In this document: piece after piece, positions 716 to 7,725 of the stretch | Layout: every line of letters begins with the position of its first letter | How positions within the stretch are numbered: the stretch's first letter is position 1 | NCBI RefSeq assembly: GCF_050320075.1 | Contig: NZ_CP190018.1 | Direction: 5' to 3' (one strand) | DNA length: 64,000 nucleotides | From: Escherichia coli | GTDB taxonomy: Bacteria; Pseudomonadota; Gammaproteobacteria; Enterobacterales; Enterobacteriaceae | Translations under genes and position numbers: made by a program | The notes under the pieces: generated by a model | What the model saw: the letters and a program-made list of their open reading frames with translations, nothing else | Database searches by the model: none | What the model was told of the DNA's origin: nothing

Positions 716-2950
716 ATGGTTGCGGTAAGAAGTGCACATATCAATAAGGCTGGTGAATTTGATCCGGAAAAATGGATCGCAAGTCTGGGTATTACCAGCC
801 AGAAGTCGTGTGAGTGCTTAGCCGAAACCTGGGCGTATTGTCTGCAACAGACGCAGGGGCATCCGGATGCCAGTCTGTTATTGTGGCGTGGTGTTGAGAT
901 GGTGGAGATCCTCTCGACATTAAGTATGGACATTGACACGCTGCGGGCGGCGCTGTTGTTCCCTCTGGCCGATGCCAACGTAGTCAGCGAAGATGTGCTG
1001 CGTGAGAGCGTCGGTAAGTCGGTCGTTAACCTTATTCACGGCGTGCGTGATATGGCGGCGATCCGCCAGCTGAAAGCGACGCATACCGATTCTGTTTCCT
1101 CCGAACAGGTCGATAACGTTCGCCGGATGTTATTGGCGATGGTCGATGATTTTCGCTGCGTGGTCATCAAACTGGCAGAGCGTATTGCTCATCTGCGCGA
1201 AGTAAAAGATGCGCCGGAAGATGAACGTGTACTGGCGGCAAAAGAGTGCACCAATATCTACGCGCCGTTGGCGAACCGTCTTGGGATTGGACAACTGAAA
1301 TGGGAGCTGGAAGATTACTGCTTCCGTTATCTCCACCCGACCGAATACAAACGCATCGCAAAACTGCTGCATGAACGCCGTCTCGACCGCGAACACTATA
1401 TCGAAGAGTTTGTCGGCCATCTGCGCGCTGAGATGAAAGCTGAAGGCGTTAAAGCTGAAGTGTATGGTCGACCGAAACACATCTACAGCATCTGGCGCAA
1501 AATGCAGAAAAAGAACCTCGCCTTCGATGAGCTGTTTGATGTGCGTGCGGTACGTATTGTCGCCGAGCGTTTACAGGATTGCTATGCCGCACTGGGGATA
1601 GTGCACACTCACTATCGCCACCTGCCGGATGAGTTTGACGATTACGTCGCTAACCCGAAACCAAACGGTTATCAGTCTATTCATACCGTGGTTCTGGGAC
1701 CAGGTGGCAAAACCGTTGAGATCCAAATCCGCACTAAACAGATGCATGAAGATGCAGAGTTGGGTGTTGCTGCGCACTGGAAATATAAAGAGGGCGCGGC
1801 AGCTGGCGGCGCACGTTCGGGACATGAAGACCGGATTGCCTGGCTGCGTAAACTGATTGCGTGGCAGGAAGAGATGGCTGATTCCGGCGAAATGCTCGAC
1901 GAAGTACGCAGCCAGGTCTTTGACGACCGGGTGTACGTCTTTACGCCGAAAGGTGACGTCGTTGATTTGCCTGCGGGATCAACGCCGCTGGACTTCGCTT
2001 ACCACATCCACAGTGATGTCGGGCACCGCTGCATCGGGGCAAAAATTAGCGGGCGCATTGTGCCGTTCACCTACCAGCTGCAGATGGGCGACCAGATTGA
2101 AATTATCACCCAGAAACAGCCGAACCCCAGCCGTGACTGGTTAAACCCAAACCTCGGTTACGTCACAACCAGCCGTGGGCGTTCGAAAATTCACGCCTGG
2201 TTCCGTAAACAGGACCGTGACAAAAACATTCTGGCTGGGCGGCAAATCCTTGACGACGAGCTGGAACATCTGGGGATCAGCCTGAAAGAAGCAGAAAAAC
2301 ATCTGCTGCCGCGTTACAACTTCAATGATGTCGACGAGTTGCTGGCGGCAATTGGTGGCGGGGATATCCGTCTCAATCAGATGGTGAACTTCCTGCAATC
2401 GCAATTTAATAAGCCGAGTGCCGAAGAGCAGGATGCCGCCGCGCTGAAGCAACTTCAGCAAAAAAGCTATACGCCGCAAAACCGCAGTAAAGATAACGGT
2501 CGTGTGGTGGTTGAAGGTGTCGGTAACCTGATGCACCACATCGCGCGCTGCTGCCAGCCGATTCCTGGAGATGAGATTGTCGGCTTCATTACCCAGGGAC
2601 GCGGTATTTCAGTGCATCGTGCAGACTGTGAGCAACTGGCGGAACTGCGCTCCCATGCGCCAGAACGCATTGTTGACGCGGTATGGGGCGAGAGCTACTC
2701 CGCCGGATATTCGCTAGTGGTCCGCGTGGTGGCTAATGATCGTAGTGGGTTGTTACGTGATATCACGACCATTCTCGCCAACGAGAAGGTGAACGTGCTT
2801 GGCGTTGCCAGCCGTAGCGACACCAAACAGCAACTGGCGACCATCGACATGACCATTGAGATTTACAACCTGCAGGTGCTGGGTCGCGTGCTGGGTAAAC
2901 TCAACCAGGTGCCGGATGTTATCGACGCGCGTCGGTTGCACGGGAGTTAG
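716..2950 (+). CDS. relA: GTP pyrophosphokinase / (p)ppGpp synthetase I
   Basis: 744-aa ORF with RelA/SpoT synthetase region and C-terminal ACT/TGS-like region; conserved relA-mazEFG neighbourhood. Confidence 0.97.
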   Translation: MVAVRSAHINKAGEFDPEKWIASLGITSQKSCECLAETWAYCLQQTQGHPDASLLLWRGVEMVEILSTLSMDIDTLRAALLFPLADANVVSEDVLRESVGKSVVNLIHGVRDMAAIRQLKATHTDSVSSEQVDNVRRMLLAMVDDFRCVVIKLAERIAHLREVKDAPEDERVLAAKECTNIYAPLANRLGIGQLKWELEDYCFRYLHPTEYKRIAKLLHERRLDREHYIEEFVGHLRAEMKAEGVKAEVYGRPKHIYSIWRKMQKKNLAFDELFDVRAVRIVAERLQDCYAALGIVHTHYRHLPDEFDDYVANPKPNGYQSIHTVVLGPGGKTVEIQIRTKQMHEDAELGVAAHWKYKEGAAAGGARSGHEDRIAWLRKLIAWQEEMADSGEMLDEVRSQVFDDRVYVFTPKGDVVDLPAGSTPLDFAYHIHSDVGHRCIGAKISGRIVPFTYQLQMGDQIEIITQKQPNPSRDWLNPNLGYVTTSRGRSKIHAWFRKQDRDKNILAGRQILDDELEHLGISLKEAEKHLLPRYNFNDVDELLAAIGGGDIRLNQMVNFLQSQFNKPSAEEQDAAALKQLQQKSYTPQNRSKDNGRVVVEGVGNLMHHIARCCQPIPGDEIVGFITQGRGISVHRADCEQLAELRSHAPERIVDAVWGESYSAGYSLVVRVVANDRSGLLRDITTILANEKVNVLGVASRSDTKQQLATIDMTIEIYNLQVLGRVLGKLNQVPDVIDARRLHGS

Positions 2951-2959
2951 GCCGAAATT

Positions 2960-3010
2960 AGCTCGTATCTACAATGTAGATTGATATATACTGTATCTAC
3001 ATATGATAGC
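2960..3010 (+). promoter_or_regulatory. mazEF promoter/operator region with perfect palindrome atctaca-a-tgtagat
   Basis: 7-1-7 inverted repeat at about 2967..2981 directly upstream of mazE, followed by AT-rich -10-like sequence; matches the autoregulated mazEF promoter architecture. Confidence 0.6.
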
Positions 3011-3027
3011 GGTTTGAGGAAAGGGTT

Positions 3028-3276
3028 ATGATCCACAGTAGCGTAAAGCGTTGGGGAAATTCACCGGCGGTGCGGATCCCGGCTACGTTAATGCAGGCGC
3101 TCAATCTGAATATTGATGATGAAGTGAAGATTGACCTGGTGGATGGCAAATTAATTATTGAGCCAGTGCGTAAAGAGCCCGTATTTACGCTTGCTGAACT
3201 GGTCAACGACATCACGCCGGAAAACCTCCACGAGAATATCGACTGGGGAGAGCCGAAAGATAAGGAAGTCTGGTAA
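3028..3276 (+). CDS. mazE: antitoxin MazE (AbrB/SpoVT-type)
   Basis: 82-aa [30 protein letters not shown]..., stop overlaps the mazF start. Confidence 0.97.
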
Positions 3277-3611
3277 TGGTAAGCCGATACGTACCCGATA
3301 TGGGCGATCTGATTTGGGTTGATTTTGACCCGACAAAAGGTAGCGAGCAAGCCGGACATCGTCCGGCTGTTGTCCTGAGTCCGTTCATGTACAACAACAA
3401 AACAGGTATGTGTCTGTGTGTTCCTTGTACAACGCAATCAAAAGGATATCCGTTCGAAGTTGTTTTATCCGGTCAGGAACGTGATGGCGTAGCGTTAGCT
3501 GATCAGGTAAAAAGTATCGCCTGGCGGGCAAGAGGAGCAACGAAGAAAGGAACGGTTGCCCCAGAGGAATTACAGCTCATTAAAGCCAAAATTAACGTGC
3601 TGATTGGGTAG
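3276..3611 (+). CDS. mazF: mRNA interferase toxin MazF (ACA-specific endoribonuclease)
   Basis: 111-aa [38 protein letters not shown]..., overlapping gene pair with mazE. Confidence 0.97.
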   Translation: MVSRYVPDMGDLIWVDFDPTKGSEQAGHRPAVVLSPFMYNNKTGMCLCVPCTTQSKGYPFEVVLSGQERDGVALADQVKSIAWRARGATKKGTVAPEELQLIKAKINVLIG

Positions 3612-3682
3612 GTGTTACTAACTCACTTCTATTCTGGTCACAGGTTTCCACCTGACGGACCCGCAATTTTCAGGACATTCTA

Positions 3683-4474
3683 ATGAATCAAATCGACCGT
3701 TTGCTCACCATCATGCAGCGCCTGCGCGATCCGGAAAACGGCTGCCCGTGGGATAAAGAGCAGACATTTGCCACCATTGCGCCTTACACCCTTGAAGAAA
3801 CCTACGAGGTGCTGGACGCCATCGCCCGTGAAGATTTTGACGATCTTCGCGGTGAACTGGGCGATCTGCTGTTCCAGGTGGTGTTTTACGCACAAATGGC
3901 TCAGGAAGAAGGGCGCTTTGACTTTAATGATATATGCGCCGCGATCAGCGATAAATTAGAACGTCGCCATCCGCATGTTTTTGCTGACAGTTCTGCCGAA
4001 AACAGTAGTGAAGTGCTTGCCCGTTGGGAGCAAATCAAAACCGAAGAGCGCGCGCAGAAAGCGCAGCATTCGGCGCTGGACGATATTCCTCGTAGTTTAC
4101 CGGCTTTAATGCGTGCGCAAAAAATCCAGAAACGTTGCGCCAACGTTGGTTTTGACTGGACGACGCTTGGTCCGGTAGTCGATAAAGTCTACGAAGAGAT
4201 CGACGAGGTGATGTACGAGGCACGGCAGGCTGTTATCGACCAGGCTAAACTGGAGGAGGAAATGGGCGACCTGCTGTTTGCCACGGTCAATCTGGCTCGT
4301 CATTTAGGGACAAAAGCGGAAATCGTATTGCAAAAAGCGAACGAAAAATTCGAGCGTCGTTTTCGCGAAGTGGAGCGTATTGTTGCCGCGCGTGGACTGG
4401 AAATGACAGGTGTTGACCTCGAAACAATGGAAGAAGTCTGGCAACAGGTAAAACGGCAGGAAATTGATCTCTAA
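3683..4474 (+). CDS. mazG: nucleoside triphosphate pyrophosphohydrolase MazG
   Basis: 263-aa ORF with tandem MazG-type NTP-PPase domains; position after mazF. Confidence 0.95.
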   Translation: MNQIDRLLTIMQRLRDPENGCPWDKEQTFATIAPYTLEETYEVLDAIAREDFDDLRGELGDLLFQVVFYAQMAQEEGRFDFNDICAAISDKLERRHPHVFADSSAENSSEVLARWEQIKTEERAQKAQHSALDDIPRSLPALMRAQKIQKRCANVGFDWTTLGPVVDKVYEEIDEVMYEARQAVIDQAKLEEEMGDLLFATVNLARHLGTKAEIVLQKANEKFERRFREVERIVAARGLEMTGVDLETMEEVWQQVKRQEIDL

Positions 4475-4686
4475 GGGAATTACGTGGTCAAGCGCGATTT
4501 GTGTCATTTTTTAAATGACAAGCGCTTGATTTGCGTCAAAAACATTTACCCCAAAGGGGCTATTTTCTCACTCCTGATTTCAATAGTGCGCTGGCGAAGA
4601 GGAGGGATAATGAAAGTTTGTGGCACTGGTCATGTTCGGGTATACTGCTTTCCCGTCCTGGTTATTCCATCGTCTTTTCAACCTAA

Positions 4687-6339
<1,653 letters not shown>

Positions 6340-6411
6340 GTAAAAAAGTTAGAACGGCAACGCGTACCCTGGGTACGCGTTGTTTGTCTGGAGTTTCAGT
6401 TTAACTAGTGA

Positions 6412-7725
<1,314 letters not shown>

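Follow-up and report, generated by a model that had tools for sequence, protein, structure and literature searches.

The chromosomal mazEF (chpA) module of Escherichia coli is among the first chromosomal toxin-antitoxin loci and among the best studied; its operator is already known. According to the available descriptions of Marianovsky et al. (2001, JBC 276:5975), mazEF is transcribed from two promoters, P2 and P3, which lie 13 nt apart, P2 being approximately 10-fold stronger. Both promoters are repressed weakly by MazE alone and strongly by MazE-MazF. The same descriptions present the operator as an "alternating palindrome", whose middle part can pair with either the upstream "c" part or the downstream "b" part. 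Reviews of that work state that the b arm overlaps P2 and that a Fis site upstream of the palindromes activates. As one of these reviews (PMC4803016) relates, numerous mutations in the alternating palindrome left MazE-MazF binding intact, and this tolerance was originally read as recognition that depends on structure more than on sequence.

A later study measured the individual sites (Zorzini 2015, NAR 43:1241, PMC4333400). MazE dimers occupy three sites, c, a and b, through an AbrB-type N-terminal beta-barrel, with W9, N11 and R16 as contact residues. By isothermal titration calorimetry (ITC), MazE bound c with a Kd of 0.6 uM, b with 2.1 uM and a with 5.1-5.6 uM; the fit for the complete "cab" operator (n=3) gave 0.6 uM, and binding to a random duplex DNA control was very weak. 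The binding enthalpy was largest for site c (-9.1 kcal/mol, against -3.5 for a), and MazF increased MazE-operator binding in EMSA. The sole structural model of MazE on DNA (NMR/SAXS, PDB 2MRU) concerns site a and shows a B-form duplex contacted in the major groove. The study names a as the only perfect palindrome, a statement that overlooks the 15-bp perfect palindrome in its own c oligonucleotide. We also noticed a contradiction in the later literature: a 2016 review (PMC4803016) ranks a as the best site for MazE, while the ITC table of PMC4333400 ranks c > b > a.

The relA-mazE spacer carries the published operator

The window, by which we mean the whole 64-kb stretch of E. coli DNA analysed here, contains relA, mazE, mazF and mazG in this order, followed by pyrG and eno. 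The features needed below are as follows.

716-2950: relA, with HD, RelA_SpoT, TGS and ACT domains
2962-3010, no strand assigned: whole "cab" operator, bound by three MazE dimers (published); identical to K-12 MG1655
2965-2973, plus strand: upstream arm "c", GTATCTACA, where the direct repeat first occurs (repeat finder)
2967-2981, no strand assigned: palindrome ATCTACA-A-TGTAGAT, core of MazE site c (sequence; oligonucleotide and ITC, Zorzini 2015; conservation in homologues)
2974-2981, plus strand: middle arm ATGTAGAT, the shared arm of the alternating palindrome (repeat finder; descriptions of Marianovsky 2001)
2981-2994, no strand assigned: oligonucleotide of MazE site a, TTGATATATACTGT (published), with its ATATAT core at 2984-2989; contains the -35-like TTGATA and the -10-like TATACT (relaxed scan)
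2987-2992, plus strand: -10-like TATACT, candidate -10 of P2, implied start site ~2999-3001
2993-3002, plus strand: downstream arm "b", GTATCTACAT, where the direct repeat recurs, within the b oligonucleotide (repeat finder; published)
3002-3007, plus strand: -10-like TATGAT, candidate -10 of P3, implied start site ~3012-3014
3016-3019, plus strand: putative Shine-Dalgarno sequence GAGG, 8 nt ahead of the mazE ATG
3028-3276, plus strand: mazE, 82 aa, antitoxin of AbrB/MazE fold and autorepressor (PF04014, E 3.5e-14)
3276-3611, plus strand: mazF, 111 aa, PemK/MazF endoribonuclease toxin and co-repressor (PF02452, E 5.9e-24)
3683-4474: mazG

The identity of the genes is clear. MazE aligned over all 82 residues with chains of PDB 1MVF and 1UB4 (E ~5e-52) and over residues 2-50 with 2MRN/2MRU. 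A megablast search with positions 2850-3700 of the window returned E. coli chromosomes of up to 100% identity, in which RefSeq annotates relA, mazE, mazF and mazG; the relA-mazE-mazF-mazG arrangement is annotated by RefSeq in 4415 E. coli genomes. The locus has the features of a type II toxin-antitoxin operator: the antitoxin gene comes first in a bicistron and overlaps the toxin gene by 1 nt (3276), the antitoxin carries a DNA-binding domain of the AbrB type (PF04014), and palindromes lie 27-61 nt upstream. Two further elements were seen at this locus. The last codons of relA hold a perfect 12-bp G+C-rich palindrome, CGACGCGCGTCG, at 2923-2934. In addition, when the MG1655 annotation was mapped to the window, the antisense RNA aMEF (ameF, b4844; 2911051-2911450) fell on the minus strand from 3316, in mazF, to 2917, in relA, and is thus transcribed across mazE and the entire operator. 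A 2022 mBio paper reported that aMEF stimulates mazEF expression.

A sequence-only reading of this stretch had described a perfect 15-bp palindrome directly upstream of mazE, followed by a second element. The sequence itself, a repeat finder and a script agreed on the palindrome, ATCTACAATGTAGAT, at 2967-2981. It consists of ATCTACA (2967-2973), a single A (2974) and TGTAGAT (2975-2981), so that the two arms are complementary at 7/7 positions across a 1-nt gap; it stops at 15 bp, T2966 and T2982 not being complementary. Its offset is 17 nt past the relA stop codon and 46 nt ahead of the mazE ATG. The second element was likewise present, at 2992-3005 (tgtatctacatatg, equivalent to TGTATCTACATATG). 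Both elements are contained in the 77-bp spacer between the end of relA (2950) and the mazE ATG (3028). Short ATATAT/TATATA palindromes (2984-2990) separate them, and CATATG comes after, at 3000-3005. The complete sequence of 2960-3011 is AGCTCGTATCTACAATGTAGATTGATATATACTGTATCTACATATGATAGCGG.

The two elements are not independent of each other: together they make up a single alternating palindrome with three arms. The repeat finder reported GTATCTACA as an exact 9-nt direct repeat with copies at 2965-2973 and 2993-3001, 28 bp apart. It also reported that the middle arm ATGTAGAT (2974-2981) is complementary at 8/8 positions to ATCTACAT (2995-3002) across a 13-nt gap. The middle arm is thus able to pair with either neighbouring arm. 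An equivalent description is that the spacer contains one full palindromic site and a half-degenerate second copy. Between the two elements sits the third published MazE site, a, with its ATATAT core. The centres of c and b are 28 bp, or about 2.7 helical turns, apart; the two sites thus face different sides of the helix, and simple same-face cooperativity is not obvious.

Positions 2962-3010 matched the 50-mer "cab" operator oligonucleotide CTCGTATCTACAATGTAGATTGATATATACTGTATCTACATATGATAGCGT at 49/50 bases, the difference being the last base: the published 50-mer (Zorzini 2015) ends in ...GCGT, while the window and MG1655 genomes read ...GCGG. The single-site oligonucleotides could be placed exactly, c (GTATCTACAATGTAGATTG) at 2965-2983, a (TTGATATATACTGT) at 2981-2994 and b (ATATACTGTATCTACATAT) at 2986-3004. 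Since the palindrome lies in the c oligonucleotide, which has the lowest Kd, it is the core of the tightest MazE site. The a oligonucleotide of Zorzini does not correspond to the middle arm but to the stretch that separates it from arm b; the letter "a" thus appears to denote one stretch in the 2001 description and another in that of 2015. In a full-text literature search with the palindrome sequence, Zorzini 2015 was the sole match. Taken together, the location in the spacer, the identity to the oligonucleotides and the complementarity of the middle arm to both neighbours identify the element as the published alternating palindrome. The earlier proposal of an operator for MazE-MazF autoregulation is therefore supported, by a sequence equal to published MazE-bound oligonucleotides next to genes that encode MazE and MazF. 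Its judgement that this is a well-formed example and not a novelty was also correct.

Predicted promoter elements within the operator

A relaxed scan of the spacer found one -35-like hexamer, TTGATA (2981-2986), and three -10-like hexamers, TACAAT (2970-2975), TATACT (2987-2992) and TATGAT (3002-3007). The best sigma-70-like pair was TTGATA (2981-2986) with TATGAT (3002-3007), separated by a 15-bp spacer. The assignment most consistent with the 13-nt distance between the start sites, the overlap of b with P2 and the Shine-Dalgarno sequence at 3016-3019 would make TATACT the -10 element of P2 and TATGAT that of P3. An alternative assignment would put P2 on TATGAT. Under either assignment, the predicted core promoter elements all fall inside 2962-3010, so that RNA polymerase would be kept out by three bound MazE dimers with MazF as the bridge. 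The promoter scan itself gave a sole pair near the operator, ATGATA-18-TATGAT (3003-3032), which we discarded as spurious, its -10 element overlapping the mazE start codon.

We also looked for the Fis site. A strict Fis-type pattern (GNNYANNNNNTRNNC) had no match in 2634-7125 and was rarer in the window than in shuffles. The stretch GGCCGAAATTAGCTC (2950-2964) agrees with this pattern in the terminal G/C and the A/T core only. The T that K-12 carries at 2960 is the 11th base of this 15-mer, where the pattern also has T. As a separate observation, the window has A at 2960 and the other aligned E. coli sequences have T (5/5); this position belongs to the stretch of the reported Fis site.

Conservation of the operator within E. 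coli

The spacer together with the adjoining gene ends (111 nt) was present in 4418/5426 complete E. coli genomes. The 49-bp operator was found in 4405 E. coli genomes, with an identity of at least 99% in 4192 of them. We aligned six sequences, namely the window, K-12 MG1655, UTI89, RM14723, B95.deltaA and O19:H7 730V1, and the 15-bp palindrome was invariant in all of them (6/6). Variation was seen elsewhere in the operator: arm b carries a C-to-T change at 2997 (GTATTTACA) in O19:H7 strain 730V1, and UTI89 and RM14723 share an A-to-C change at 3008, directly after the TATGAT hexamer.

Differences from MG1655 were unevenly distributed. Window positions 2961-3040 equal MG1655, and the operator and all of mazE are identical. 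From the end of relA to the start of mazF (2885-3352) there was a single difference, the A/T at 2960, compared with 20 substitutions in the 3' part of relA (2434-2884, 450 nt). A 1-nt indel lies just past the mazF stop codon (~3612). This pattern could reflect purifying selection or a recombination boundary.

Approximately 1000 of the 5426 complete E. coli genomes (roughly 19%) are without mazEF. In the sole such genome inspected, E. coli CB6886 (contig L006, 1601-1700), mazG is the next gene after relA, and the ~95-bp spacer between the two holds the inverted repeat GCTGGATA...TATCCAGC.

Conservation upstream of distant MazE homologues

We assembled 38 loci whose MazE homologues have 28-71% identity: four from a genome scan (two Pantoea, a Hyphomicrobiales bacterium and Chimaeribacter), 11 from a plasmid tblastn search (hosts Proteus, E. 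coli, Zymomonas, Sphingobium, Citrobacter, Klebsiella, Deinococcus, Enterobacter and Gluconobacter) and 23 from IMG/VR contigs. Within 120 nt upstream of the gene start, 21/38 loci carried a sequence with at most 3 mismatches to ATCTACAATGTAGAT, and 7 of the 38 had a single mismatch (e.g., TGTATCTACAATGTAGAGACA in Chimaeribacter and TGTATCTACAATGTAGACATA in Gluconobacter pGOX1); shuffled upstream regions had 6-7.5 mismatches on average. The flanks outside the 15-mer were conserved as well, and symmetrically so: G-9, T-8, A+8 and C+9 recurred in 12-14 of 15 distinct sites. This extends the family consensus to 19 bp, GTATCWACA-N-TGTWGATAC. Against this consensus, 27/38 loci scored at least 14/18, compared with a shuffled best of ~10 and a maximum of 13-14. 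The operator is thus conserved along with the antitoxin across homologous modules, well beyond the shuffled controls. Depending on the measure, 11-17 of the 38 loci were without a good palindrome match, the IncN-plasmid group included.

On the protein side, W9, G10, N11 and R16 were invariant in the alignment of MazE homologues. The sites in the homologous loci were positioned either at approximately -61 to -65, with a TTGACA -35 box in the right arm, or at approximately -20 to -30, and several loci had two sites. In Pantoea the two sites, at -50 and -22, are 28 bp apart and mirror c (-54) and b (-26) of E. coli. A motif common to the c and b arms had been reported earlier upstream of 76/79 AbrB-type MazF modules (Chopra et al. 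2013), and so we regard the footprint in homologues as a confirmation, not a discovery.

Some loci deserve separate mention. Four plasmid loci (L015, L017, L019 and L021; IncN and IncF/R plasmids of Citrobacter, E. coli, Enterobacter and Klebsiella) encode a MazE of 39-43% identity with an intact WGNS motif, and the family palindrome is absent upstream. The next gene in all four is annotated as a hypothetical protein and not as MazF; in the three loci that give it complete (L015, L017 and L021), it would encode ~180 aa. The toxin partner of these loci, or the way they are regulated, may be different. In Candidatus Pantoea varia (L008, 1501-1812), the mazE ORF has 104 aa and loses similarity to MazE past about residue 57, the P. 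agglomerans copy being 82 aa long; the antitoxin gene has probably been frameshifted (pseudogenised), whereas its operator is intact.

Even at only 28-50% identity, chromosomal, plasmid and phage/IMG-VR homologues of MazE retain an almost identical 16-19-bp sequence together with W9/N11/R16. The shared operator and the shared residues that read it raise the possibility of cross-repression: if the palindrome is the ancestral primary MazE operator, MazE from a mobile element could repress the chromosomal mazEF promoter or be titrated by it, and the reverse could also occur. We consider this speculative and rather unlikely. If true, it would mean transcriptional cross-talk between non-cognate mazEF modules through a common operator.

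A model of repression and its alternatives

As a whole, these observations are very probably explained by the palindrome being the core of site c in the E. coli mazEF "cab" operator, at which MazE and MazF repress by promoter occlusion. In this model, MazE dimers would sit on c, a and b (~2962-3010) and be bridged by MazF, and RNA polymerase would be excluded, the operator probably covering the -35-like, the -10-like and the start-site regions. Under stress, loss of the labile MazE would relieve the repression. The dyad of the palindrome, A2974, would lie under the two-fold axis of one MazE dimer. The conservation in homologues suggests that the 15-bp palindrome is the ancestral, family-wide MazE site, read sequence-specifically in the form of the 19-bp consensus. 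A second copy would then lie 28 bp downstream, with arm b as its left half and a right half that may have decayed into, or been replaced by, TATGAT. On this account the "alternating" property would be a by-product of two tandem sites rather than a structural switch.

Exactly such a switch is the alternative that survives best, although we find it improbable. It holds that the arms change between two hairpin or cruciform states (pairing of the c part or of the b part with the middle part) and that MazE-MazF reads the extruded structure. The perfect pairing of the middle arm with either neighbour agrees with this, as does the mutation tolerance described in the reviews of Marianovsky 2001, where secondary structure was weighed above sequence. 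We examined the folding of single-stranded 2960-3010 and obtained -4.3 kcal/mol, with z = -0.78 relative to shuffles, 43/200 of which folded at least as well; this gives no support to a hairpin or cruciform that is intrinsically favoured. Pairing of the upstream arm with the middle arm leaves a 1-nt loop, for which full closure is impossible. Moreover, MazE specifically binds short linear duplex oligonucleotides of each site, and the NMR/SAXS model is a B-form duplex (PMC4333400). Homologues keep the base sequence itself (TCTACAATGT) and not just the complementarity, and most of them have one full palindrome or two separate ones instead of three arms. Mutation tolerance is also what three redundant, MazF-bridged sites would be expected to give, and the published tolerance fits redundancy among the three MazE sites.

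A role at the RNA level seems less probable still. Here the ACA-bearing arms would be MazF cleavage sites in relA read-through transcripts, in P2 transcripts or in the antisense RNA aMEF. ACA is found on the plus strand at 2971-2973 and 2999-3001 and also in the complement of the middle arm, and aMEF spans the region in the MG1655 annotation; however, a 3-mer such as ACA is expected about every 64 nt. Homologous MazF-family toxins cut different motifs, and the operator is conserved across them all the same. MazF has been published to cut its own mRNA at ACA in vivo, but the published cleavage mapping concerns the coding region. Finally, binding of MazE to duplex DNA fully explains the conservation, including the palindromic symmetry, and RNA cleavage needs no symmetry.

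We also asked how unusual the palindrome is by chance. The 64-kb window contained 13 perfect 7+7 palindromes with a spacer of 0-1 nt, compared with 9.7 +/- 3.3 in dinucleotide shuffles, and 43/200 shuffles reached 13. In 27/200 shuffles, some palindrome in the window had a third copy no more than 40 nt away. From the same shuffle figures, ~0.012 perfect 7+7 palindromes are expected in this particular 77-bp spacer. As palindromes in the window are not above chance, we dropped their frequency as evidence of function; the case for function comes from position and context, identity to the published operator and conservation, and not from the palindrome statistic. The unexceptional frequency, together with the modelling of binding at a as the only named perfect palindrome (Zorzini 2015), would suit a functionless chance palindrome next to a real operator made up of the ATATAT site a only, but we give this hardly any credence, because the palindrome-bearing c oligonucleotide binds ~9-fold tighter than a and with the larger enthalpy, ATATAT/TATATA was found upstream in only 2/38 homologue loci against 21/38 for the palindrome, and the palindrome is invariant among the aligned E. 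coli sequences. Equally negligible is a relA transcription terminator or RNA hairpin, which the start of the palindrome 17 nt past the relA stop codon might suggest: the 7-bp stem is A+T-rich, its loop would be a single nucleotide and no T-run follows, a terminator scan of the plus strand (2700-3750) found nothing, Rfam gave 0 matches at E<=1 for both strands of 2600-3800, and E. coli genomes without mazEF have a different hairpin-containing spacer after relA.

Comparison with known systems

The operator in the window is the P2/P3 operator of E. coli K-12 mazEF (Marianovsky 2001; Lah et al. 2003; Zorzini 2015), with the same locus, sequence and flanking genes. We found no functional difference from it; the window has A for T at 2960, just upstream.

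The parD (kis-kid)/pem systems of R1/R100 resemble mazEF in several respects. Kis/PemI is a homologous antitoxin of the MazE-family AbrB fold, and kis-kid likewise has two inverted-repeat regions in its promoter, one of them over the -10 element, with the toxin as co-repressor and regulation dependent on the toxin:antitoxin ratio. As published, the Kis-Kid repeats are two imperfect 18-bp inverted repeats 33 bp apart. E. coli mazEF instead packs three elements into 40 bp, namely one perfect 15-bp palindrome, a half-site and an ATATAT site.

The VapB2-VapC2 complex of Rickettsia felis (PDB 3ZVK) also has an AbrB-type antitoxin dimer that recognises a short A/T palindrome through the major groove, with interactions identical to those with ATATAT (Zorzini 2015). 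It differs in having a PIN/VapC toxin, and the comparison covers site a, not the 15-bp palindrome.

The other operators of AbrB-type MazE-MazF modules (Chopra et al. 2013) carry the core GTATCWACA-N-TGTWGATAC upstream, and W9/N11/R16 are invariant, as in E. coli. Unlike the three-arm layout of E. coli, most of the sampled homologues have a single full palindrome or two full palindromes; on the sequences compared, E. coli seems to be set apart by its three-arm "alternating" layout and by the ATATAT site. The comparative result is that palindrome c is the conserved MazE site, which agrees with the ITC data, where MazE bound it 9-fold tighter than a; the structurally modelled site a is not conserved. 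This suggests that the "alternating palindrome" is better seen as two tandem operators of the family type, the second of them half-decayed.
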